From sequence record MK047718.1: a stretch of 64,000 nt of DNA. One strand, 5' to 3'. Shown here one piece after another: positions 1,830 through 14,502 of this stretch (within the stretch, counting starts at the first letter, position 1; each line of letters starts with the position of its first letter). Under the pieces are notes generated by a model. It was not told the origin of the DNA. It made no database searches and worked only from the letters and a program-made list of their open reading frames with translations. The translations under genes were made by a program, and so were the position numbers. The DNA comes from Escherichia phage p000y.

Positions 1830-2999
1830 ATGCAAAAAATGAATACTTTTAAAATCGGAACGAATTTTGATTTAGCTCTTCTTGATAAAATCGTAGAGCT
1901 CAATAAAACCTATCCTAATAGCTTGATAAACGAAGTATATGGCTCTACAAGAGAAATGGCTTTTGTAGCAGCCAGACCTGATTTTAGGCTTCCTGACGTT
2001 GACAAAAAGATGTTAGAAGACTACGTTAAACGTTGTAACGAATTAGGTATTTGCTTTAACTATACACTCAACACGATAAATCCTGGTTCAAAAAGAGAAC
2101 TAGTTGAGTGGAAGAAGAAAGCTATTCAGGATTATGTTCAGTATCTTTGGTCAATAGGCGTATGGCGTATTACTATCGCTAACCCTGTTGTTATGGAAAT
2201 TGTTCGTGAAGTCAATAAAGATATTGAGATTGAAGTTTCAACAATTCTACATGTCGATGCGGTAACTCAAATCAAATACTTACATGACCAATATAACATC
2301 AAAAAGGTCTGTTGCGGAATTCATAAGAACCGTTCAGTTTCTTTCCTGAAGCGTGCAGCAGAGTTTTGCAATAAGAACAATATAATATTTGAAGTTCTTG
2401 TAAATGAGTTCTGTTCTAATGCTGGTAAAGGGTATACAACACATTGTAGTTATCGTGACTCTTGCTATATTTTCCATAGTACTGATGTTACCGCTGATGA
2501 TGCTAAATCCTTAAATGGATATCCTATGCAGCACTGTATTAAAGCTCGTGATACAGACCCATTTAACTGGTTGAGAACTCGTTTTGTTCGTCCTCAAGAT
2601 TTGAAACTTTATAATGATATTGGTATCACTCAATTCAAAGTTTCAGGACGTACAGGTAGCACAGACTACATTTTGAAAGTTCTTGAAGCATACGCTTCTG
2701 AAAAGTTTGAAGGTAATTTGTTAGAACTGTGGAAGCCTTTAGAGACTATTTTCACTCTTGAAAATGAGACTGAGTTTTCACATACAGTAAATATTGAAAC
2801 CTCTTTGTTAGATGGCTTTTTAGAAAAAAGGTGGTTCAGACATCCAGATTTTGATTGTGCTAATGAAATCTGTGGGTCAACGTGTACATATTGTGAAAGG
2901 TATTATAAACGTCAATTATCTAAAAACGGGTTAGCAGAAAACTCCATATCTATTATTGATATAACTAACTCTGATGACGCTTTGAGGTACCCGGAATGA
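1830..2999 (+). CDS. peptidase-U32-family protein (TIM-barrel, Cys-rich / Fe-S type)
   Basis: 389 aa with a UbiU/YhbU-like layout. N-terminal FKIGTNFDLALLDKIVEL, CFNYTLNT, central Cys cluster EFCSNAGKGYTTHCSYRDSC...HC, and ITQFKVSGRTGSTDYILKVLEAY (compare the family KIEGR segment). Extra C-terminal CANEICGSTCTYC cluster. Confidence 0.6.
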   Translation: MQKMNTFKIGTNFDLALLDKIVELNKTYPNSLINEVYGSTREMAFVAARPDFRLPDVDKKMLEDYVKRCNELGICFNYTLNTINPGSKRELVEWKKKAIQDYVQYLWSIGVWRITIANPVVMEIVREVNKDIEIEVSTILHVDAVTQIKYLHDQYNIKKVCCGIHKNRSVSFLKRAAEFCNKNNIIFEVLVNEFCSNAGKGYTTHCSYRDSCYIFHSTDVTADDAKSLNGYPMQHCIKARDTDPFNWLRTRFVRPQDLKLYNDIGITQFKVSGRTGSTDYILKVLEAYASEKFEGNLLELWKPLETIFTLENETEFSHTVNIETSLLDGFLEKRWFRHPDFDCANEICGSTCTYCERYYKRQLSKNGLAENSISIIDITNSDDALRYPE

Positions 3000-3235
3000 T
3001 TTCTAGAAAAAGTTTTAATTATAAACTTAACGAAGAGATTTTGACTATGAAACTGAACACTAACGAACAAATTCTTAAAAAGGCCCTTATGGGCCTGTTT
3101 GAAACCAAAGCGGCTAAAGTGATTAAAGAACCTGTTCAATTGGAATACTACACTGATGCATTCCTTCATAGTGTTCTTGGAAGTATAGATTCTGAAGCTT
3201 TACGTTATATCAACATTGTCAAGAAATTCAAATAA
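2996..3235 (+). CDS. hypothetical protein (79 aa)
   Basis: ATGA overlap with the U32 stop suggests translational coupling. No recognisable family. Confidence 0.5.
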   Translation: MISRKSFNYKLNEEILTMKLNTNEQILKKALMGLFETKAAKVIKEPVQLEYYTDAFLHSVLGSIDSEALRYINIVKKFK

Positions 3236-3258
3236 GCTTTACGAATTGAGTATATAAT
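3235..3258 (+). promoter_or_regulatory. MotA-dependent middle promoter (hydroxymethylase-like gene)
   Basis: MotA-box-like AGCTTTA 3235-3241, 11-nt spacer, -10 TATAAT 3253-3258. Confidence 0.5.
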
Positions 3259-3277
3259 AAATTGTATTGAGGTAAAC

Positions 3278-3994
3278 ATGGGAAAACATAACACAATGAA
3301 ATATATCAAAGCCGCAGATTTTCAAACCGCATTTAAAGCAGTCAATCGTGAAATTTTAGAAAACCCGGAATTCGTAACTGATTCTCGTATTGGACGTTGT
3401 AATGAAATTGGGTCTATGACAGTAGTTGTTGACACTCCATCATCATTCAAAATGACCGACCCACGTATTAACCGCATCTCTTATGAATATGCCGAAGACT
3501 TCTGGAAGTTTATGATTTCTGGTGGTACCAACGCAGAAGAAGCGTTTAAGGCATATCCTAATGTCGCTAAATTTATTTCTAAACCAAAATCAGATGTTTT
3601 GCCGGCGAACTTCAACACTTTCTATGGTCCTCGCATTGCGGCCCAATTACCAACTCTTCTAAAAGAACTTAAAGAAAAACCTAACTCTCGAAGAGTTGTG
3701 TTCCAAATTCTAGAAAGTTCTGATCAGGCTTTGCTTGATTCGGACGAAACACTTGAATATCCATGTACTGACTCAGTAACTTATTATATTCGTGATGGTA
3801 AGCTTTATACCCACTGTCATATGCGTTCTCAGAACTGTGCTGTTGTTATGCAGTTGGATTTTTATCTCCAAGGAAAATTACTTCATTATATCGCTAACGA
3901 ATGCGGTGTAGAAGTTGGTGATTATACTCATACCATGGTAAGTGCCCATGTGTTTGAACGTGATTTTGATTATGTTAAAGGATTCCTTGACTAA
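3278..3994 (+). CDS. thymidylate-synthase-fold deoxycytidylate hydroxymethylase-like enzyme (gene 42 position, divergent from T4 gp42)
   Basis: TS-family blocks NSRRVVFQI, catalytic Cys in EYPCTDSVTYYIRDGKL, HMRSQNCAVVMQLDFY with Asp where true TS has Asn. GAGG SD lies 8 nt upstream and a MotA-box promoter sits at 3235-3258. Confidence 0.7.
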   Translation: MGKHNTMKYIKAADFQTAFKAVNREILENPEFVTDSRIGRCNEIGSMTVVVDTPSSFKMTDPRINRISYEYAEDFWKFMISGGTNAEEAFKAYPNVAKFISKPKSDVLPANFNTFYGPRIAAQLPTLLKELKEKPNSRRVVFQILESSDQALLDSDETLEYPCTDSVTYYIRDGKLYTHCHMRSQNCAVVMQLDFYLQGKLLHYIANECGVEVGDYTHTMVSAHVFERDFDYVKGFLD

Positions 3995-4893
3995 TGGCTA
4001 TTTTCCGCGTACCAATCTTGAGTATGCGGTCTTATGAAACTGGACAGTATGCTATCCTTAAGGATGGCAACTTCCAACTTCATTTGCACCGTGCTAATCC
4101 GGGTGATGTGATTACATATCCACGTAATGCATCTGATATTAAAGAATGCGAACGTCTTTTCCCAGAATTTAAGTTTGTTCCATTATGGTATAAAGATAAC
4201 GCGTATAACACTCGTAAATATTTCTGGACTGAAAATGAATTTGTGGTTGATTCATTAATTGATTATTATGATTGTGATTTTCTAATCACAGATATCACTG
4301 GTTATGGCGGCGCTTTTGATGTGGAATTCAATTTCAATATCACTGCAGACCCTAATAAACCACGTTTTTATATTGATGAATTCTTAAAAACCGACATGTT
4401 GTCTGTTAATCGTTCACTTCAAACTACTGTGTTGAATGAACGTCAAAAAGAAGTGCTGGTTAACGCAGGTGCAGATGGTAATAAGATTATCGTAACGCAG
4501 AAAGTTATACGTCCTTCCATCATGCAGCGTCTTGTAGGTGATTTGGCTCCTATTCATCTAGATGGTATTTTTCATCCATTTCGAATTAGTGACCCATGTT
4601 ATCGTTTTGAACAAGTGGTTGAATGTGCAATTCAATTAGGTCAACCGCTTTATATAACCGATCCAAATAATAGCTTCGACAGAAATAAGTATCCTGAAGA
4701 AGCGCTGATTCGAATTTTTAAACCAACTAAAACTGAGTACTATCAAATTCTTAAAGGACGTCCGAAAATTCAATATTTCGAAAATCCTGAAGAAGTATTC
4801 CATCCAGGTCTTGGTGAGTTCATCTACTTTAATGCTTTAATTTCTTCGCCGTATAATATACCTAAATACGAAGATGTCGTAATCGAGGAATAA
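3994..4893 (+). CDS. hypothetical 299-aa protein in the T4 beta-glucosyltransferase slot; candidate DNA sugar transferase
   Basis: TAATG-coupled to the hydroxymethylase-like gene and lying between it and uvsX, where T4 has beta-gt. No motif I can assign firmly (HPFRISDP, FHPGLGEF). The function is inferred from position only. Confidence 0.45.
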   Translation: MAIFRVPILSMRSYETGQYAILKDGNFQLHLHRANPGDVITYPRNASDIKECERLFPEFKFVPLWYKDNAYNTRKYFWTENEFVVDSLIDYYDCDFLITDITGYGGAFDVEFNFNITADPNKPRFYIDEFLKTDMLSVNRSLQTTVLNERQKEVLVNAGADGNKIIVTQKVIRPSIMQRLVGDLAPIHLDGIFHPFRISDPCYRFEQVVECAIQLGQPLYITDPNNSFDRNKYPEEALIRIFKPTKTEYYQILKGRPKIQYFENPEEVFHPGLGEFIYFNALISSPYNIPKYEDVVIEE

Positions 4894-4894
4894 A

Positions 4895-5443
4895 ATGGCT
4901 AAAATTATTTTAGTAGATGGCCCGGATAATGCTGGTAAAACAACTTTCATTAATGACATAATGGAAATTAGTGAAAGATATGTAAAGATTGATTTCCCTA
5001 AACGAACAGTTGATGGACGTTTCGATGTTAAGTCTCGAAATGAAGTTGGCTGTTTCGAAACGATGTTGAATTATTTAGACCCTACTAAGATTTATCTGTT
5101 AGACCGTGGATATATTAGTAACTGGGTTTATGGACGTATTCGACAAGATGCGGACTCGATTCTTGACGTTTATGAACAGGACTATGTTCGTCTTTGCCAA
5201 AACCATGATGTGTTCACAATTATTTTAACACGTAACGAAATGACTGAAAGTTTTGAAGACGACCTTATTACTTTGTCTTCATTCGGTTTTAATACAGTCA
5301 TTTCACATTTTGAAGAGTTTGCAATTCATAACAAAATCCAAACGTATCAATTACTTAATCATGATGGTGCTAACAAAGTTATAGGATTTAATGCAAGCGA
5401 ACGTAATTATTTGATTACAGAAATTATCAAATGGGCTCGTTAA
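4895..5443 (+). CDS. P-loop thymidylate-kinase-like (d)NMP kinase
   Basis: Walker A GPDNAGKTT near the N-terminus and a TMK-like DR[YH] motif (DRGYISNWVYG). 182 aa. Unlike T4 gp1. Confidence 0.6.
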   Translation: MAKIILVDGPDNAGKTTFINDIMEISERYVKIDFPKRTVDGRFDVKSRNEVGCFETMLNYLDPTKIYLLDRGYISNWVYGRIRQDADSILDVYEQDYVRLCQNHDVFTIILTRNEMTESFEDDLITLSSFGFNTVISHFEEFAIHNKIQTYQLLNHDGANKVIGFNASERNYLITEIIKWAR

Positions 5444-5463
5444 GAGCCATTTAAAGTTTTAAA

Positions 5464-5488
5464 TGCTGTATAACCCTTAGTATATAAT
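5464..5488 (+). promoter_or_regulatory. MotA-dependent middle promoter (uvsX)
   Basis: MotA box variant TGCTGTA 5464-5470, 12-nt spacer, TATAAT 5483-5488. T4 uvsX is a classic middle gene. Confidence 0.6.
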
Positions 5489-5541
5489 CATCTTATCTTT
5501 TAAACATGAGTAAAATATAATGATGCCTATGGAAAAATACA

Positions 5542-6714
5542 ATGTCTGATTTAAAATCTCGTCTGATTAAAGCTTCTACTTCTAAAATGACTGCAGACTT
5601 GACTAAGTCTAAGCTGTTTAATAATCGTGATGAAGTCCCTACTCGTATTCCGATGTTGAATATTGCATTAGGTGGTGCACTGAATGCCGGGTTGCAATCA
5701 GGCTTAACTATTTTTGCTGCTCCTTCTAAACACTTTAAAACGTTGTTTGGGCTGACCATGGTTGCAGCATATATGAAGAAATATAAAGATGCAATCTGTT
5801 TGTTTTATGACTCAGAATTCGGTGCTTCAGAATCTTATTTTCGTTCAATGGGTGTTGATTTAGACCGTGTAGTTCATACTCCGATTCAATCTGTCGAACA
5901 ACTTAAAGTTGATATGACTAATCAGCTTGACGCGATTGAACGCGGTGATAAAGTTATTATCTTTATCGATTCAATCGGTAATACTGCATCTAAGAAAGAA
6001 ACCGAAGATGCGTTGAACGAGAAAGTTGTAGGTGATATGTCTCGTGCTAAGGCACTTAAATCTCTGTTTCGCATTGTGACCCCGTATCTGACTATTAAAG
6101 ATATTCCGTGTGTTGCAATTAACCATACCGCAATGGAAATCGGCGGACTATATCCTAAAGAGATTATGGGTGGTGGTACAGGTATTCTTTACTCTGCTAA
6201 CACTGTATTCTTTATCTCTAAACGTCAGGTTAAAGAAGGTACAGAATTGACCGGTTATGACTTCACGTTGAAAGCAGAAAAATCTCGTACAGTTAAAGAG
6301 AAATCTACTTTCCCAATCACAGTTAATTTTGATGGTGGTATCGACCCATTCAGTGGCTTGTTAGAAATGGCAACTGAAATTGGTTTTGTAGTTAAGCCTA
6401 AAGCCGGGTGGTATGCTCGTGAATTCCTTGACGAAGAAACAGGTGAAATGATTCGTGAAGAGAAATCATGGCGTGCTAAAGCTACTGATTGTGTAGAATT
6501 CTGGGGACCGTTGTTTAAACACAAACCTTTCCGTGACGCAATTGAAACTAAATATAAACTAGGTGCTATCTCTTCTATTAAAGAAGTTGATGACGCTGTT
6601 AATGACCTTATTAATTGCAAAGCAACAACTAAAGTTCCGGTTAAAACTTCTGATGCTCCGTCTGCAGCAGATATAGAAAACGACCTTGATGAAATGGAAG
6701 ATTTCGATGAATAA
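5542..6714 (+). CDS. uvsX: UvsX RecA-like recombinase
   Basis: Near-colinear with T4 UvsX as I recall it (MSDLKSRLIKASTSK..., GGGTG, acidic C-terminal tail). 390 aa. Confidence 0.97.
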   Translation: MSDLKSRLIKASTSKMTADLTKSKLFNNRDEVPTRIPMLNIALGGALNAGLQSGLTIFAAPSKHFKTLFGLTMVAAYMKKYKDAICLFYDSEFGASESYFRSMGVDLDRVVHTPIQSVEQLKVDMTNQLDAIERGDKVIIFIDSIGNTASKKETEDALNEKVVGDMSRAKALKSLFRIVTPYLTIKDIPCVAINHTAMEIGGLYPKEIMGGGTGILYSANTVFFISKRQVKEGTELTGYDFTLKAEKSRTVKEKSTFPITVNFDGGIDPFSGLLEMATEIGFVVKPKAGWYAREFLDEETGEMIREEKSWRAKATDCVEFWGPLFKHKPFRDAIETKYKLGAISSIKEVDDAVNDLINCKATTKVPVKTSDAPSAADIENDLDEMEDFDE

Positions 6715-7057: not shown

Positions 7058-8500
7058 GTGGTAGAAATTATTTTGTCTCATCTAGTATACGACCAGGCTT
7101 ATTTTTCTAAGGTCTGGCCTTATATGGATTCTGAGTATTTTGAGCGTGGACCGGCAAAAAATGTCTTTAAAATTATAAAGAGCCACGTTAACGAATATAA
7201 TGCAATGCCATCTATCAATGCGTTAAAGGTGGCTTTAGATAACAGTTCTTTAACTGAAGCCGAATATAAAGGAACTTCAGACCTAATTGAAAAATTGGCT
7301 GATACTCCTGAAGACCATGAGTGGTTGGTTAAAGAAACTGAGAAATATGTCCAGCAAAAAGCGATGTATAATGCTACATCCAAAATCATTGAGATTCAGT
7401 CTAATGCTGAACTACCTCCAGAACAACGTAACAAGAAAATGCCTGACGTAGGAGCTATTCCTGATATTATGCGTCAAGCACTTTCAATTTCGTTCGATAG
7501 TTATGTTGGACATGACTGGATGGAAGACTATGAAGCACGCTGGCTTTCTTATCTAAATAAAGCACGTAAGGTCCCGTTCAAATTAAACATTCTTAATAAA
7601 ATCACCAAAGGTGGCGCAGAAACAGGTACACTGAACGTTTTAATGGCCGGTGTTAACGTTGGTAAATCTTTAGGCCTTTGTTCACTTGCTGCAGATTATC
7701 TTCAAACAGGACATAATGTTCTTTATATTTCCATGGAAATGGCTGAAGAAGTTTGTGCTAAGCGTATAGATGCAAACATGCTTGACGTATCACTCGATGA
7801 TATCGATGATGGTAACGTATCTTATGCTGAATATAAAGCCAAGATGGAAAAATGGCGTTCAAAAACAACATTAGGACGTTTAGTAGTTAAACAGTATCCT
7901 ACTGGTGGAGCTAATGCTAATACATTTCGTGCATTGCTTAATGAGTTAAAACTTAAGAAGAACTTTGTGCCATCTGTAATCATGGTTGATTACTTAGGTA
8001 TTTGTGGGTCTTGTCGTATCAGAGTTTACACTGAAAATAGCTACACATTAGTTAAAGCTATCGCAGAAGAACTTCGTGCATTAGCAGTAGAATCTGAAAC
8101 AGTTCTATGGACTGCAGCTCAAGTAGGACGTGCAGCATGGGATGCTTCAGACATGAACATGAGTGATATCGCAGAATCGGCAGGTTTACCAGCAACGGCA
8201 GATTTCATGTTGGCTGTAATTGAAACCGAAGAACTTGCACAAGCTGAACAACAACTTATCAAACAAATCAAATCACGATACGGCGATAAGAATAAGTGGA
8301 ATAAATTCCTGATGGGTGTACGTAAAGGCAATCAGAAATGGGTTGAGATTGAGCAAGAAGGCATGAACACACCTAACACAGTAAATGAAAACGCAGGTGC
8401 TCAGATGCGTCAGGCAGAGGTGAATCGTACGGAACGCGTAGGTAAAGCCAAAGCAACACGTGCTGACCTAGATAGCTTAGCCAATGAGTTAAAATTTTAA
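7058..8500 (+). CDS. 41: gp41 replicative DNA helicase
   Basis: MVEIILSHL..., Walker A GVNVGKS, C-terminal LANELKF match T4 gp41. GTG start with AAGGAG SD at 7047-7052. Confidence 0.97.
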   Translation: MVEIILSHLVYDQAYFSKVWPYMDSEYFERGPAKNVFKIIKSHVNEYNAMPSINALKVALDNSSLTEAEYKGTSDLIEKLADTPEDHEWLVKETEKYVQQKAMYNATSKIIEIQSNAELPPEQRNKKMPDVGAIPDIMRQALSISFDSYVGHDWMEDYEARWLSYLNKARKVPFKLNILNKITKGGAETGTLNVLMAGVNVGKSLGLCSLAADYLQTGHNVLYISMEMAEEVCAKRIDANMLDVSLDDIDDGNVSYAEYKAKMEKWRSKTTLGRLVVKQYPTGGANANTFRALLNELKLKKNFVPSVIMVDYLGICGSCRIRVYTENSYTLVKAIAEELRALAVESETVLWTAAQVGRAAWDASDMNMSDIAESAGLPATADFMLAVIETEELAQAEQQLIKQIKSRYGDKNKWNKFLMGVRKGNQKWVEIEQEGMNTPNTVNENAGAQMRQAEVNRTERVGKAKATRADLDSLANELKF

Positions 8501-8505
8501 TAAAA

Positions 8506-8527
8506 AGGAGACTTCGGTCTCCTTTCG
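8506..8527 (+). terminator. rho-independent terminator, C(UUCG)G tetraloop
   Basis: AGGAGAC-TTCG-GTCTCCT then TTCGGGGTTT, just after the gene 41 stop. Confidence 0.6.
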
Positions 8528-8530
8528 GGG

Positions 8531-8559
8531 TTTACATCTTCCTCTAGGCATGATATGAT
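8531..8559 (+). promoter_or_regulatory. T4-type early (sigma-70) promoter
   Basis: -35 TTTACA 8531-8536, 17-nt spacer, -10 TATGAT 8554-8559. Upstream of ORF 8589. Confidence 0.6.
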
Positions 8560-8588
8560 GAACTTACACCAACCAAGAGGAAAACATT

Positions 8589-8963
8589 ATGAATATGTCT
8601 CAAGCAATTTTTACTGCAATCACCGAAAACACAACTGTTGAAGTAGTTTCTCCACTGGCAACCTACGTTATTCTTGCTCCTAAAACTATTGTATCTCGTA
8701 TGGAAAACATGGGCAAACGTATCGTACAAATAGTTGGAGCTGGAAATCAAAAACTTGATTATCTACGAACCATCAAAGCTTATGAACATTTCCAACTCGA
8801 AAAAGGTTCTCCTATCCAGGTAGAACTCGTAAATGGTGATATCGTTCGAGCAATGTTCCATCATTTCTATGCATTGAATGACCCATCTAAAGCGGTTCGT
8901 TTAATTGCATACGACGCAAACCAAAAAGAAATCAACGCAGATGTATCTAAATTACGTTTTTAA
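8589..8963 (+). CDS. hypothetical protein (124 aa)
   Basis: Early promoter at 8531-8559 and AGAGGA SD upstream. No recognisable family. Confidence 0.6.
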   Translation: MNMSQAIFTAITENTTVEVVSPLATYVILAPKTIVSRMENMGKRIVQIVGAGNQKLDYLRTIKAYEHFQLEKGSPIQVELVNGDIVRAMFHHFYALNDPSKAVRLIAYDANQKEINADVSKLRF

Positions 8964-8964
8964 G

Positions 8965-9012
8965 TTTACTTCTCCAGTAGTTGTGTTATTATAGACCTAT
9001 CAACTACTGGAG
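8965..9012 (+). promoter_or_regulatory. early promoter embedded in a 12-bp stem-loop
   Basis: -35 TTTACT 8965-8970, -10 TATTAT 8987-8992. Perfect inverted repeat CTCCAGTAGTTG (8972-8983) / CAACTACTGGAG (9001-9012); the 3' arm contains the SD GGAG of ORF 9019. Confidence 0.65.
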
Positions 9013-9018
9013 AACAAA

Positions 9019-9336
9019 ATGAAAACCATCGATTGTAAAGCAGAATTTAAGATTTTTTATCACGGTTCAAGTAGTTCAGCTAACATCGAAAACATGCTTT
9101 GTCCTCCTGAGGAAACAGGAGTTCTGTCTGAAACTGGACGTAAGAAAAACTTGGATCGTGTATTCTTTACTGAAGATATCGGTTTAGCAAAGATTTATGC
9201 AGGACGAGCGGCACGCTCTTATGGAGGTGAACCACGTCTCTATCGAGTAATTTCTCCGGTAGACGTAGTTCAAATGAATAATACTAAAGGTGCTACAGTT
9301 TATCACGCTGAATGGGCATTTTGCGAGGAAATATGA
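9019..9336 (+). CDS. small Arr (rifampin ADP-ribosyltransferase)-like protein, candidate ADP-ribosyltransferase
   Basis: 105 aa. FYHGSS...(30 aa)...RVFFTEDIGLAKIYAGRAA...GEPRLYRVISP follows the Arr pattern FYHGT...YFS...A.WGAELA...G.IY.VEP as I recall it. It has its own early promoter in a stem-loop. Confidence 0.35.
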   Translation: MKTIDCKAEFKIFYHGSSSSANIENMLCPPEETGVLSETGRKKNLDRVFFTEDIGLAKIYAGRAARSYGGEPRLYRVISPVDVVQMNNTKGATVYHAEWAFCEEI

Positions 9337-9521
9337 GCAAATTAACTAAAATTACTTTTATTGGCTGGTTTAAAAGCGGTGAGATGTTCACTAAAGATAT
9401 CATGTTATCAGGTGATCGTGAAGAAATCGAGTGGGTTGCGGTACAACTTGCTGAAGTAAACAATGCATTAGTTAAAGCATTTATTAATGACGAGAAAGTT
9501 TTTGAAGCAGATTTTCGATAA
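9333..9521 (+). CDS. dmd: Dmd, antitoxin against RnlA/LsoA-type RNases
   Basis: MSKLTKITFIGWFKSGEMFTKDI...AEVNNALVKAFINDEKVFEADFR aligns with T4 Dmd (..VFMGWFKNESMFTKEI...AEVNKALVKAFIDDKKV). ATGA overlap with the upstream stop, GAGGAA SD. Confidence 0.85.
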   Translation: MSKLTKITFIGWFKSGEMFTKDIMLSGDREEIEWVAVQLAEVNNALVKAFINDEKVFEADFR

Positions 9522-9535
9522 TTTTAAAATAACTG

Positions 9536-9564
9536 TTTACAAGCACCGCATACTGTGTTACTAT
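9536..9564 (+). promoter_or_regulatory. early promoter
   Basis: TTTACA 9536-9541, 17 nt, TACTAT 9559-9564. Confidence 0.65.
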
Positions 9565-9592
9565 CTTTCTATCAACTACAGAGGAAATTGAA

Positions 9593-9961
9593 ATGAAAAA
9601 ATTAATCGCTTTAGCAATGGTATTTGGATTAACCGGATGTGGTGCCCACGGCTTTATCCCTAATAACGTTGGCCAACTGATTTACAATCCGAATGTTAAA
9701 CAGTACGACCAACCTAAAGTTGAAGTGGAAGATCCGGTTACTGTAGGTAATCGAATGATTCAAGCTGATGCTCATGCTCAACGTTATCGTGATTCTGATA
9801 CTGTAGCATTGTCAAAAGAACAACGCGTTAAAGAACATTGTCTACAGGCTACTGAAATCGCATTCATTCGCTATGTTGAAACAACTGGTAAAGAGCCTAC
9901 CCAGAAACAAATCGCGAATAACTACGTCCAGTGTATTGAACGTTTAAACAAATTTAATTAA
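9593..9961 (+). CDS. lipoprotein (122 aa)
   Basis: Signal peptide MKKLIALAMVFGLTGC with lipobox LTGC. Own early promoter at 9536-9564. Confidence 0.7.
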   Translation: MKKLIALAMVFGLTGCGAHGFIPNNVGQLIYNPNVKQYDQPKVEVEDPVTVGNRMIQADAHAQRYRDSDTVALSKEQRVKEHCLQATEIAFIRYVETTGKEPTQKQIANNYVQCIERLNKFN

Positions 9962-9965
9962 TTGG

Positions 9966-9994
9966 TTTACGCAAAAGTTAAAACAAGATACTAT
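9966..9994 (+). promoter_or_regulatory. early promoter
   Basis: TTTACG 9966-9971, 17 nt, TACTAT 9989-9994. Confidence 0.6.
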
Positions 9995-10022
9995 AAACAT
10001 AACAAATCAAGAGGAAATTAAC

Positions 10023-10271
10023 ATGGAATTATTCGTAGCTAGTTCAGTAGCAGTTTTAATCGCAGGTATTGGTTCAATCATCATTTACATGTTGCCTTGG
10101 GTAATCGCACTTATTCGTGGCACAAAAAGCACAACAGCAATCTTCTTTGTATCTTTACTCTTTAACTGGACGATGATTGGTTGGATTGGAACTTTAATTT
10201 GGTCTATCGTTGCCGAAAAGAAATCTGCTCAGCAGCCTCAACAAGTAATTATTATTCGCGAAAAAGAATAA
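10023..10271 (+). CDS. superinfection-immunity (Imm)-family small membrane protein
   Basis: 82 aa with two TM segments. YMLPWVIALIRGTKSTTAIFFVSLLFNWTMIGWIGTLIWSI matches the Imm_superinfect pattern (LP.iIA..RG....aIf.lNl..GWT.iGW...liW). Confidence 0.6.
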   Translation: MELFVASSVAVLIAGIGSIIIYMLPWVIALIRGTKSTTAIFFVSLLFNWTMIGWIGTLIWSIVAEKKSAQQPQQVIIIREKE

Positions 10272-10276
10272 ACTTG

Positions 10277-10310
10277 TTTACATTATAGATGGACTATAGT
10301 ATAGTAGTCC
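10277..10310 (+). promoter_or_regulatory. early promoter with inverted repeat around the -10
   Basis: TTTACA 10277-10282, 17 nt, TATAGT 10300-10305. IR GGACTA (10291-10296) / TAGTCC (10305-10310). Confidence 0.65.
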
Positions 10311-10334
10311 TATCAAATCAACTAAGGAGTTAAA

Positions 10335-10628
10335 ATGAAAAAGTTATCATTGGCAGCAATCTTACTTGCAGTATCATGTGCACCGGCTCCAGTTACGGCA
10401 GGTTATGATAAAGACCTCTGTGAGTGGTCAATGACTGCAAATCAAGAAGATGTTGAACAACAAATCTTCTCTGATATCATGAACATCACTAAACGAGACC
10501 GTCCTAATATGGTTAATAAAGTTGTTGAACAACTTAAGTCTGGTGGTATCATGCAGTACAACTATGTTTTGTATTGTGACCCTAATTTCGATAACAAAGA
10601 TATCGTAACCGAAATCACAGGTGAATAA
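10335..10628 (+). CDS. sp: Spackle periplasmic inhibitor of tail lysozyme (superinfection exclusion)
   Basis: 97 aa. Signal peptide followed by GYDKDLCEWSMTA...MQYNYVLYCD closely matches T4 Sp (gp61.3). Confidence 0.9.
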   Translation: MKKLSLAAILLAVSCAPAPVTAGYDKDLCEWSMTANQEDVEQQIFSDIMNITKRDRPNMVNKVVEQLKSGGIMQYNYVLYCDPNFDNKDIVTEITGE

Positions 10629-10629
10629 T

Positions 10630-11280
10630 ATGATTTATTATATGCACAAAAACGCACCATTTAAATATGGTAAATTTCCTAATGCACAATGTTATAATAT
10701 AACGCCGAACGAAAATAATAACGGATATCATATTGGTGTAATTTTTGTAATTGTTAAAGATAACGAAATCATTGCCTGGGCCGATTTTAAAGGTACAACA
10801 TATGATGTTAATCCTGTGCCTTTCACATATTACAATATAATGGATTTGGCATATGATTATAATTGGTTTAATCATGACACGTTGGCTCATATTGAAGGTG
10901 TAGGATTTGACATCTCTTATTCTAGCTATTCATTATGTCCTATGAGCCGAGCTCACGGTAAAGATGTATCATATCTTTCAATTCGGAAACGTGTAAACTT
11001 CAAACGTAGTACAGAGTATGTTGGTGGACTCTTTGTTAAAGATAATAAAATAACCCGTATTAGTTATCCTTTAAGTGTAGGTCAAAAAGATGTTGACGTT
11101 GATTTGGACTTAACTGAAAATAACATTAATCGTATTGCTTCTGTATATTTTGATATCGATGAAAAAATTGTAGTGTGTGGATACGAATTACCACCTGAAG
11201 AAAAGGCTGAAGCAATTGAAGTCGAATTAGAAATTTCTGTTGATGACCAAATATTTAATGCATTTATGAATCGAGGTTAA
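10630..11280 (+). CDS. gp61.2-like protein (T4 61.2 position)
   Basis: 216 aa directly after sp, as T4 61.2. I prefer ATG 10630 (AGGTG SD) over the tracked GTG 10621. Confidence 0.6.
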   Translation: MIYYMHKNAPFKYGKFPNAQCYNITPNENNNGYHIGVIFVIVKDNEIIAWADFKGTTYDVNPVPFTYYNIMDLAYDYNWFNHDTLAHIEGVGFDISYSSYSLCPMSRAHGKDVSYLSIRKRVNFKRSTEYVGGLFVKDNKITRISYPLSVGQKDVDVDLDLTENNINRIASVYFDIDEKIVVCGYELPPEEKAEAIEVELEISVDDQIFNAFMNRG

Positions 11281-11281
11281 A

Positions 11282-11479
11282 ATGACTACTGCAATTTGCA
11301 CTGGTTCTAAAATTAGTGTTTTTACAAGTTTTGAAGATTATGAAGTTGTTTCAAAACACCAATGCCATATTAGCGTAAAAGCTAATGACGGTGTAATTTG
11401 GAATATTCCACAGTATGAAGGCACTACATATGAAGTCACAGATATAAATGGTAACAAAGCAATCTTTGTAATTGATTAA
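11282..11479 (+). CDS. hypothetical protein (65 aa)
   Basis: ATG 1 nt after the upstream stop. No recognisable family. Confidence 0.5.
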   Translation: MTTAICTGSKISVFTSFEDYEVVSKHQCHISVKANDGVIWNIPQYEGTTYEVTDINGNKAIFVID

Positions 11480-11498
11480 ATATACTCAGGAGGTACCT

Positions 11499-11966
11499 AT
11501 GGGTATTATTAACACTGCAATAGATTCTGTTTACGCATATAAGTTTATTCGACTAATGCAAAAACCTTTTACCGAATGGAAAGCATACGAAGCCAAAATC
11601 ATCGATGAACGTGGAAGTGTTCTTAAACGCCCTTCCACTCCTGAAGAGAAAGCGGCTTATACACCTTTTCATGCTTCAGTTCGTTCAATGAAGCGAATGA
11701 TGAACACTGTTCCAGGTCTTAATGGAATGGCATCAATGATGTCTGCCTGGAGTGCTGTAGCATCCCGCTATAACATTACAGAAGAACAGCAGAAAGAAAT
11801 ATTTAAAGAACTCCCTTTATTTGAGGATATGGTGGCTGGTGATTCAGGTGGCAGCCCTCAAGCTATTGCATCAGGAACAACCACAGGTGCAGTCGTAAAT
11901 AAAGGTCCAGAACAAATTCCTTCCAAGAAAAGAAAGCGAATTAAAGTAAATATTAATAAGTTGTGA
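11499..11966 (+). CDS. hypothetical protein (155 aa), 61.1 position
   Basis: ATG 11499 is preceded by a strong SD (AGGAGG), which I prefer over the tracked TTG 11472. The C-terminus is basic (KKRKRIK). Confidence 0.6.
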   Translation: MGIINTAIDSVYAYKFIRLMQKPFTEWKAYEAKIIDERGSVLKRPSTPEEKAAYTPFHASVRSMKRMMNTVPGLNGMASMMSAWSAVASRYNITEEQQKEIFKELPLFEDMVAGDSGGSPQAIASGTTTGAVVNKGPEQIPSKKRKRIKVNINKL

Positions 11967-12005
11967 TATGATGGCCTTATTAATTTAAGGCCTCTGGAGA
12001 ATACT

Positions 12006-13028
12006 ATGGCTGAATGGATAGATAATGAATTTGCTTATCGTGCGTTTTCTCACCTCCCTCGTTTTAGACAAATCAATAATTCAAGCACATTTAAATTAAC
12101 GTTTCGTTGTCCAGTTTGTGGCGACTCCCAGACAGATGCAATGAAAGCTCGCGGATGGTATTATGGCGGTACTCCTGGTAATGTACATTGCTATAACTGC
12201 CAATACCACAATACAATTTCCGGATACTTAAAAGAGTATGATGAAGAGCTTTATCGCGAATATCTAATGGAAGTTCGTAAAGAAAAAGCTAGAATGGAAC
12301 CGAAGATTGAAAAGGTTCCTGAACATAAACCAGAACCGGAGAAAAAGACTATAAATTCTTTGCCGTCTTGTTCTCGTCTGGACAAACTGCCTGAAGAGCA
12401 TCCTATTGTGAAATATGTTAAGTCTCGGTGTATTCCTAAAGAATCGTGGAATAGATTATGGTTCACATTAGAATGGCCTAAATTGGTCAACAAGATTCAA
12501 CCTGGTACGTATAAGAAAGAGATTCCCGAGCCACGTTTAGTGATTCCTATTTTTAATAAAGACGGGAAGGCCGAGTCATTCCAAGGACGTGCACTTCGTA
12601 AAGATGCTCCTCAGAAATATATCACTATTAAAGCGTTTGAGTCTGCAACAAAAATTTATGGTGTTGAACGTGTTAAGGAAGGAGACGTCTGGGTAATGGA
12701 AGGCCCTATTGATAGTTTATTCATACCCAATGCAATCGCTATTACAGGCGGCTCAATAGATTTAGATGTGGTACCATTTAAAGAACGTCGGGTATGGGTA
12801 ATGGATAATGAACCTAGGCATCCAGATACTATAGCTCGCATGAAGCGATTAGTTGATGCAGGCGAACGTGTCATGTTCTGGGACCGAGCTCCATGGAGAT
12901 CAAAGGATGTGAATGATATGGTAATGAAAGAAAATGCAACACCACAAGAAATTTTAGAATATATGAAACAGAATATTTCAAGTGGGTTGCATGCTAAAAT
13001 GAGATTATCTCGTTATTCGAAGATTTAA
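12006..13028 (+). CDS. 61: gp61 DNA primase
   Basis: Zinc ribbon CPVCGDS...CYNC and a Toprim-like MEGPIDSLF...DNE; colinear with T4 gp61. 340 aa. Confidence 0.95.
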   Translation: MAEWIDNEFAYRAFSHLPRFRQINNSSTFKLTFRCPVCGDSQTDAMKARGWYYGGTPGNVHCYNCQYHNTISGYLKEYDEELYREYLMEVRKEKARMEPKIEKVPEHKPEPEKKTINSLPSCSRLDKLPEEHPIVKYVKSRCIPKESWNRLWFTLEWPKLVNKIQPGTYKKEIPEPRLVIPIFNKDGKAESFQGRALRKDAPQKYITIKAFESATKIYGVERVKEGDVWVMEGPIDSLFIPNAIAITGGSIDLDVVPFKERRVWVMDNEPRHPDTIARMKRLVDAGERVMFWDRAPWRSKDVNDMVMKENATPQEILEYMKQNISSGLHAKMRLSRYSKI

Positions 13029-13222
13029 ACAAGCCCTATAATAGCAAAGGCCAAATCAACTACAGTATCCAATGGAACAGAAGGAACTATAATACCATGG
13101 GCAACTAACAATGGTGCAATCCCGAAGTTCCATGAAATAATGCCACCTACAACTATTGCAGCGATAGCAGTTTTCTTTTTATTGCCTTTAATAGCGTTGA
13201 TTAACGATGGAAGTTTAAACAT
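13025..13222 (-). CDS. small membrane protein (65 aa) on the opposite strand
   Basis: Strong SD on the - strand (AAGGAG 6 nt before ATG). Two hydrophobic segments (TAIAAIVVGGIISW, VVDLAFAIIGLV). Its stop abuts the gene 61 stop. Confidence 0.55.
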   Translation of the reverse strand: MFKLPSLINAIKGNKKKTAIAAIVVGGIISWNFGIAPLLVAHGIIVPSVPLDTVVDLAFAIIGLV

Positions 13223-14493: not shown

Positions 14494-14502
14494 TTTCTAC
14501 AG

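Follow-up and report, generated by a model that had tools for sequence, protein, structure and literature searches.

The RB69-type accessory region between genes 41 and 61 of Escherichia phage p000y: gene families linked to anti-toxin and exclusion functions, and a predicted minimal ADP-ribosyltransferase

The DNA analysed here is a 64,000 nucleotide stretch of Escherichia phage p000y (sequence record MK047718.1), referred to below as the window, and the region of interest within it (positions 8589-11479) is an island of short genes situated between those for the replicative helicase and the primase. Gene 41 (7058-8500, + strand), a 480 amino acid open reading frame (ORF) which aligns with RB69 gp41, forms the left boundary of this island, while gene 61 (12006-13028, + strand; 340 amino acids), which corresponds to RB69 gp61, forms the right boundary. 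Using megablast analysis of positions 8500-12000, 152 phage records with at least 80 % coverage and 95-99 % identity could be distinguished, all of which are RB69-like (Mosigvirus). RB69 itself is 98.0 % identical to this region at the nucleotide level over 3.5 kb, and the two agree in both the order and the annotation of their genes. Its annotation maps one-to-one from gp41 through gp61, with the island proteins differing from their RB69 counterparts by zero to three residues. By these alignments, the source of the stretch can be assigned to Mosigvirus and the interval to an RB69-type accessory region. Nine short genes, all on the + strand, occur between genes 41 and 61: homologues of RB69ORF041c and RB69ORF040c, the latter encoding a predicted mini ADP-ribosyltransferase, followed by dmd, imm.1, imm, sp, adfA, a homologue of RB69ORF033c, and 61.1. 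The original prediction, made from the sequence and its ORF list, had counted nine short ORFs within 8589-11479; all those it named were recovered, with eight falling inside this range and the ninth, 61.1 (11499-11966, + strand), beyond it. A Shine-Dalgarno sequence is present for every ORF of the interval, and chance ORFs were rejected on the basis of these sequences and of conservation in many phages. The ORF list includes no minus-strand genes within the island, with only short AT-rich ORFs found inside adfA. None of the nine proteins matched the PADLOC defence models, NCBIfam gave no above-threshold additions for them, and no Rfam RNA family was detected in the whole window.

Profile matches place Dmd, Imm, Spackle and AdfA in families with experimentally known roles. 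Dmd (9333-9521, + strand; 62 amino acids) matches PF17587 (70.1 bits against a cut-off of 27; E 2e-19) and is 54 % identical to T4 Dmd. The Dmd family inhibits the RnlA and LsoA toxins, and the p000y protein is predicted by homology to be an antitoxin-like inhibitor of RnlA/LsoA. Dmd occurs in 798 phage records, in 573 of which it is less than 60 % identical; those sampled among the latter derive mainly from Tequatrovirus, with Krischvirus (RB49) and one Pseudomonas phage also represented. Two tandem Dmd paralogues, one annotated as a 'translational repressor protein', are found 3' of the transferase gene in the Salmonella Dhakavirus ABTNLsp5 (locus 4254-4652). Imm (10023-10271, + strand; 82 amino acids), a superinfection immunity protein with two transmembrane segments, matches PF14373 (57.2 bits against a cut-off of 27.9; E 1.5e-15), is 65 % identical to T4 Imm and has hydrophobic segments at residues 1-34 and 40-59 (Kyte-Doolittle). 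Proteins of the Imm family block DNA entry of superinfecting phage. Spackle (sp; 10335-10628, + strand; 97 amino acids) is a periplasmic protein which matches PF25676 over its full length (profile positions 1-96 of 96; 145 bits; E 1.1e-42), with an N-terminal hydrophobic segment at residues 4-24 consistent with an export signal, and the family plays a role in superinfection exclusion. The AdfA family binds DarT, and the assignment of gp61.2 to this family is firm (PF23813; 398 bits; E 8.8e-120). The adfA gene (10630-11280, + strand) encodes 216 amino acids from the ATG at 10630, or 212 from the RB69 annotation start at 10642, and the product shares 209/212 residues with RB69 AdfA (three substitutions). 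Gene 61.2 corresponds to AdfA, anti-DarT factor A, which counters DarTG, a function found in the RB69 protein (PMC9391042, PMC11257639). The original prediction had named Dmd, Spackle, a two-transmembrane Imm-family protein and a 216 amino acid 61.2-like protein, and had mentioned a link between T4 61.2 and the countering of DarTG, all of which agree with the above. In Dhakavirus ABTNLsp5 (locus 5379-5819), a 146 amino acid ORF occupies the adfA position and matches only the last fifteen positions of the AdfA profile (E 0.0064); it may represent a diverged or truncated AdfA relative.

The lipobox lipoprotein that had also been proposed is encoded by imm.1 (9593-9961, + strand; 122 amino acids), whose predicted product belongs to PF17578 (DUF5481; E 3.7e-9) and incorporates the lipobox LTGC at residues 13-16 (Cys16) and a hydrophobic segment at residues 4-22. 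Alignment with the T4-type Imm.1 identified two conserved cysteines in the mature part (Cys83 and Cys114); the lipobox is retained in the T4-type homologue, with one relative lacking the Cys at this position. A profile search against the PDB returned no match for Imm.1, and a word-indexed homologue search gave three proteins only. The T4-type homologue, which is approximately 33 % identical, is encoded directly upstream of imm, between genes 43 and 42 of Tequatrovirus. Furthermore, the numbers of records match in the corresponding identity bands, with 154 close and 502 distant records for Imm.1, and 153 and 502 for Imm. Given the same adjacency and order in two locations and the matching record counts, imm.1 and imm appear to have moved as a cassette. 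No Imm.1 could be detected alongside the more distant Imm homologues in other genera. The imm.1-imm pairing is the best available evidence from which a part for Imm.1 in superinfection immunity can be inferred, and Imm.1 would be an exported lipoprotein working with Imm in exclusion. The cassette suggests that superinfection immunity in T4 may likewise include a second, lipoprotein component.

The 105 amino acid product of the RB69ORF040c homologue (9019-9336, + strand) is a minimal ADP-ribosyltransferase (ART) by fold. Searched alone, it yielded no sequence match in Pfam (even at E <= 10), NCBIfam or the PDB. An AlphaFold2 model built with 34 homologues in the alignment reached a predicted local distance difference test (pLDDT) value of 87.6, and Foldseek comparison of this model identified Arr as the top match (probability 1.0), with Arr and Tpt1 the nearest structures. 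A viral structure model named 'Rifampin ADP-ribosyl transferase' also matches, at 37 % identity. When the family profile was broadened, it aligned with Arr (PDB 2HW2; E 0.001), pairing H15 with Arr H19, F49 with Y49, and E38/R41/N44 with E40/R43/N46; the counterpart of Arr D84 lies just outside the hidden Markov model alignment and is probably N87 in the transferase. H15 and G16 of the h-Y-H-G-[ST] strand are invariant in alignments of 35 and 36 sequences, and the family alignment includes an invariant basic loop, S-E-x-G-R-K-K-N. The 105 amino acid protein falls below the threshold of the Pfam Arr-ms family (PF12120), which is passed by three distant homologues (26.9-29.4 bits against a cut-off of 25). 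The ORF had been termed Arr-like in the original prediction, a description upheld by the fold and the profile alignment. Iyer et al. (2022) described a separate 'p0068' transferase family, as a gene pair with Dmd (PMC9503650), and their pair corresponds to ORF040c-dmd in p000y. Literature searches on the RB69ORF names and on 'Arr-like' phage proteins returned nothing relevant, and a HIDEN-SEQ preprint, which covers T4 and Bas37, does not include the mini transferase. The protein is thus predicted in the literature but apparently has never been characterised.

The transferase gene is widespread, with 609 phage records that include it and hosts such as Escherichia, Klebsiella, Acinetobacter, Aeromonas and Vibrio. 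Approximately 350/609 records are from Klebsiella, Acinetobacter, Aeromonas and Vibrio phages. Some annotators already name the gene an ADP-ribosyltransferase. It is located within the 41-61 interval in Kanagawavirus and the Acinetobacter Lazarusvirus, and elsewhere in the genome of Aeromonas phage phiAS4. An exhaustive profile search for the domain retrieved 221 representatives, and around 60 of the 150 listed bear it within proteins of 165-3900 amino acids. The partner domains in these large relatives include ART-PolyVal, NUDIX, LPD23, DUF7178, PcfJ, portal with 2H/Acb1-like, and GNAT with Toprim, an architecture which, judged by domain content, is that of polyvalent proteins. Several of these large relatives score above the Arr-ms cut-off of Pfam. 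Injection as a means of overcoming host immunity has been proposed for polyvalent proteins (PMC5512222).

The island genes appear to be organised into five early transcription units, which share the orientation of the replication genes. Motifs of the GTTTAC type occur 25-30 nt ahead of ORF041c, ORF040c, imm.1, imm and sp, all on the + strand: P1 (GTTTACA-17-TATGAT, TG-extended; 8530-8559), P2 (GTTTACT-16-TATTAT; 8964-8992), P3 (GTTTACA-17-TACTAT; 9535-9564), P4 (GTTTACG-17-TACTAT; 9965-9994) and P5 (GTTTACA-17-TATAGT; 10276-10305), the -10 element of the last falling outside the TANNAT pattern. Across the whole window, eighteen GTTTAC-N17-19-TANNAT sites were found (17/18 on the + strand), against 0.98 expected from shuffled sequences (approximately 18-fold), and four of these (P1-P4) lie within the 2.9-kb island stretch. 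The claim that five of the genes have their own early promoters is sustained by these four sites together with the fifth bearing TATAGT. Outside the island, thirteen additional GTTTAC-type motifs, all on the + strand, indicate further early transcription units elsewhere in the window (positions 14502, 15971, 20491, 21997, 34269, 34858, 36767, 47420, 50726, 57664, 58847, 60252 and 62379). The first island unit would comprise ORF041c, the second the mini transferase and dmd, the third imm.1 and the fourth imm, while the fifth would include sp, adfA, ORF033c and 61.1 and probably runs on into gene 61. These units would be expressed immediately post-infection from their own sigma-70-type early promoters. 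Immediately 3' of gene 41 is a terminator-like hairpin (8504-8525, + strand) with a 9-bp stem, a TTCG loop and a T run, formed by the perfect inverted repeat AAAGGAGAC/GTCTCCTTT. A further RNA hairpin spans the Shine-Dalgarno and start region of the transferase gene (8965-9019, + strand), where a 19-nt inverted repeat (arms 8965-8983 and 9001-9019; 89 % complementary) has a minimum free energy of -21.5 kcal/mol (z = -5.15). The Shine-Dalgarno sequence and start region are paired in the 3' arm, with the -35 hexamer of P2 in the 5' arm and its -10 in the loop. In RNA reading through from upstream, this hairpin would mask the ribosome-binding site, while RNA started at P2 would be devoid of the 5' arm, and translation of the transferase may thereby be limited to P2-initiated transcripts. 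The masking of a ribosome-binding site on read-through transcripts by such a hairpin is an arrangement known for several T4 genes. A weaker analogous hairpin is present at 8539-8582, ahead of ORF041c.

Taken together, the interval very probably represents the Mosigvirus (RB69-type) version of the variable T-even region between genes 41 and 61, incorporating known anti-toxin and exclusion genes. Its plasticity is evident from gene content, with five genes in T4, nine in p000y, and differing sets in each of Dhakavirus, Kanagawavirus, Gelderlandvirus and Lazarusvirus. Srikant, Guegler and Laub (2022) proposed an anti-toxin-antitoxin (anti-TA) island here, with dmd, tifA (61.4) and adfA (61.2) clustered (PMC9391042). 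The idea of a counter-defence island at the 41-61 locus is thus already published, and its content is already annotated. An island rich in anti-defence and superinfection exclusion functions had also been put forward in the original prediction, and as a general description this matches the published island (PMC9391042); it is qualified by the AdfA allele carried, the lack of tifA and the strong conservation of the transferase.

These three features belong to a series of observations which limit or qualify this reading. All functional assignments in the island are based on homology or context, and P1-P5 are predicted as promoters through consensus matches to the T4-type early promoter. The hairpins analogous to that of the transferase gene are weak in the more distant phages of Dhakavirus and Kanagawavirus (z = -1.3 and -0.1). 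Residue 164 of the p000y AdfA (RB69 numbering) is Arg, as in wild-type RB69, rather than His. RB69 AdfA with R164 is reported neither to associate with nor to neutralise Escherichia coli DarT1, while the R164H form does both (PMC11257639), and anti-DarT1 activity is not expected of an Arg164 allele such as that of p000y. In addition, p000y lacks the tifA gene, whose T4 product (61.4) is an inhibitor of ToxN (Srikant et al. 2022, PMC9391042); it differs from RB69 here by a clean indel of 206 bp, located after the stop codon of dmd and before the promoter of imm.1 (9521-9593, compared with 2526-2738 of the RB69 locus). There are 69 phage records with RB69-type tifA and approximately 152 with the island, and the gene is therefore polymorphic within the genus. 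The Arg164 allele and the absence of tifA predict sensitivity to DarTG1 and greater sensitivity to ToxIN, unlike some relatives, which bears on host range prediction. With regard to the transferase, the position of the Arr Tyr is held by an invariant Phe (F49) throughout the family alignment, and the C-terminal Glu103 is invariant in the T4-like members only and not across the wider family. The ART fold and the relationship to Arr are shown by the model and profile, while catalytic competence is predicted only. Finally, the transferase is more strongly conserved than the essential genes which flank it, which is unusual and atypical for a fast-evolving counter-defence gene. It is 71 % identical to the homologue of the Acinetobacter Lazarusvirus (locus 2974-3285), a phage of another subfamily, while the flanking segments of gp41 and gp61 share 51 % and 48 %, respectively. 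The homologues sampled from phages of Aeromonas, Acinetobacter and Klebsiella have comparable identities (64-71 %), and the one Vibrio phage match listed is only 34 % identical.

This constraint suggests a conserved target, and the 105 amino acid transferase would use NAD+ to modify a highly conserved component of the host machinery or a nucleic acid. The mini transferase may thus be a general host-takeover enzyme acting in the manner of Alt, ModA and ModB rather than in counter-defence, with RNA polymerase, the ribosome, an RNA or another conserved component as its target, a reading that is plausible if somewhat short of probable. The higher identity than gp41 and gp61 to Lazarusvirus and its maintenance across phages of three other hosts argue for it, and the S-E-x-G-R-K-K-N loop and the top structural match to Tpt1, an RNA 2'-phosphotransferase, would fit a nucleic acid or phosphate-bearing substrate. 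However, the 41-61 interval of T4 contains no transferase gene and no Tequatrovirus occurs among 40 sampled matches; T-even phages can therefore complete their life cycle without the enzyme. The relatives embedded in polyvalent proteins, for which injection against host immunity has been proposed (PMC5512222), likewise argue against a takeover function.

Three ORFs (8589-8963, 9593-9961 and 11282-11479) had been singled out as uncharacterised candidates for new counter-defence or exclusion factors. The second of these, imm.1, retains a link to exclusion through its pairing with imm, while the context of ORF033c is replication-like and ORF041c provides no functional signal. The homologue of RB69ORF041c (8589-8963, + strand; 124 amino acids; phrog_10668, function unknown) shares 122/124 residues with its RB69 counterpart, has neither a transmembrane segment nor a signal peptide, and is preceded by its own promoter (P1). 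Only two clusters were found among 5.8 billion proteins, and of the 134 phage records which include it, 132 are at 95 % identity or above. Outside Mosigvirus it has two distant relatives (36-52 % identity), the one at 36 % being encoded at the same position in Dhakavirus. Conservation is seen in an N-terminal MNxSQAI..AITE segment and in an FHH motif. AlphaFold2 prediction from a three-sequence alignment failed (pLDDT 35.9), profile comparison with the PDB gave nonsignificant matches only (ribosomal L33-B of the L35Ae family, and MJ0056; E ~0.6), and Pfam scans of all members returned nothing. ORF041c is essentially genus-restricted and yielded no functional signal in these searches.

The homologue of RB69ORF033c (11282-11479, + strand; 65 amino acids; phrog_3249) starts 1 nt past the adfA stop and has no promoter of its own. 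It is of unknown function and occurs in 262 phage records. In Mosigvirus, Dhakavirus and Gelderlandvirus S16 it immediately precedes 61.1 and 61, the 41-61 interval of the last otherwise comprising just three genes. Phage Sf12, an unrelated member of the Drexlerviridae, encodes a homologue with 42 % identity immediately 3' of its helicase, HNH and VRR-NUC genes. Profile searches against the PDB gave chance-level annexin and SH3 matches (E >= 0.058) and Pfam none. Gene 61.1 (11499-11966, + strand; phrog_2086, E 8e-74) is a single, intact 155 amino acid ORF in p000y, while two ORFs, ORF032c and 61.1, take its place in the RB69 record, probably as a result of a frameshift in that record or strain. 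Beyond 61.1, a 65 amino acid hydrophobic ORF on the - strand (13025-13222) overlaps gene 61 at its end; this ORF is the counterpart of RB69ORF029w, and its position is conserved in Kanagawavirus and S16. The context of ORF033c, as read from these genomes, gives no support for a defence role, and for ORF033c and 61.1 an association with the replication genes would be more likely than one with defence. That both of these, and possibly ORF041c, are accessory replication or recombination factors rather than defence or exclusion genes is a tentative and rather doubtful explanation. The adjacency of ORF033c to 61.1 and 61 in three genera, including the reduced interval of Gelderlandvirus, the neighbours of the Sf12 homologue, the lack of a separate promoter and the start 1 nt after the adfA stop are all consistent with it. 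However, the PDB profile and Pfam searches linked ORF033c to no replication protein, little can be concluded from adjacency where phage genomes are compact, and the early promoter and very narrow distribution of ORF041c are typical of accessory 'moron' genes.

The genes for the transferase and Dmd overlap, with the dmd ATG and transferase stop forming ATGA (9333-9336), and have P2 in common. A phage-borne type II toxin-antitoxin pair, with the transferase as toxin and Dmd as its neutraliser, was predicted by Iyer et al. (PMC9503650) and would be consistent with this overlap and shared promoter, the recurrence of the pairing in Dhakavirus with its two Dmd paralogues, and the use of homologous transferase domains as effector modules of polyvalent proteins, but the model, while possible, is not favoured and seems decidedly improbable, as the two genes occur largely independently across genomes, with T4 having Dmd and no transferase in its 41-61 interval, three sampled transferase loci (from Klebsiella, Acinetobacter and Aeromonas phages) being followed by ORFs other than Dmd, and Dmd already having an established host target in RnlA/LsoA.

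Returning to a counter-defence function, the transferase may be an active early effector which ADP-ribosylates a conserved host or nucleic acid target and so disables a widespread immunity pathway, possibly with Dmd as its partner or regulator, although such a role is unlikely on present indications. If true, it would represent a new enzymatic class of phage counter-defence, common to hundreds of T4-like phages of Escherichia, Klebsiella, Acinetobacter, Aeromonas and Vibrio, with the same module reused in injected polyvalent proteins. The locus forms a well-placed catalogue of T-even host interaction genes, in which the conserved mini transferase is of main open interest. Since this enzyme is widespread and unusually conserved, identification of its substrate would shed light on many phages of the therapeutic type.

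Among known systems, the mini transferase shares with Arr (PF12120; PDB 2HW2 and 9IAF) the minimal ART fold, a similar size, and, in the profile alignment, the H-G-T motif, the E-x-G-R-x-x-N loop and the [FY]-x-T strand, but differs in its low identity (approximately 18 %), the Phe in place of the conserved Tyr49 and a length shorter by around 35 residues. A true rifampin-resistance Arr was rejected on the basis of this identity, the score below the Pfam threshold and the separately named family, and there is no reason to expect a rifamycin as substrate. AcrF11, an anti-CRISPR ART (PDB 6KYF) from another phage group, is a weaker structural match than Arr and Tpt1 and has no detected sequence similarity. 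The T4 enzymes Alt, ModA and ModB, which act on host components at the start of infection, are likewise phage-encoded ARTs. They are much larger and belong to the R-S-E clade, while the mini transferase falls on the H-Y-[EDQ] side (PMC9503650). At the level of the locus, the closest counterpart is that of RB69 (AY303349 / NC_004928), with 98 % nucleotide identity, the same gene order and zero to three substitutions per protein, from which p000y differs in lacking 61.4 (the clean 206 bp) and in its intact 155 amino acid 61.1 in place of two ORFs. The anti-TA island of T4 has the same position between genes 41 and 61 and shares dmd, sp, adfA and 61.1 with p000y. The latter is without tifA and additionally encodes ORF041c, the mini transferase, imm.1, imm and ORF033c, with the imm.1-imm pair of T4 located between genes 43 and 42 instead.

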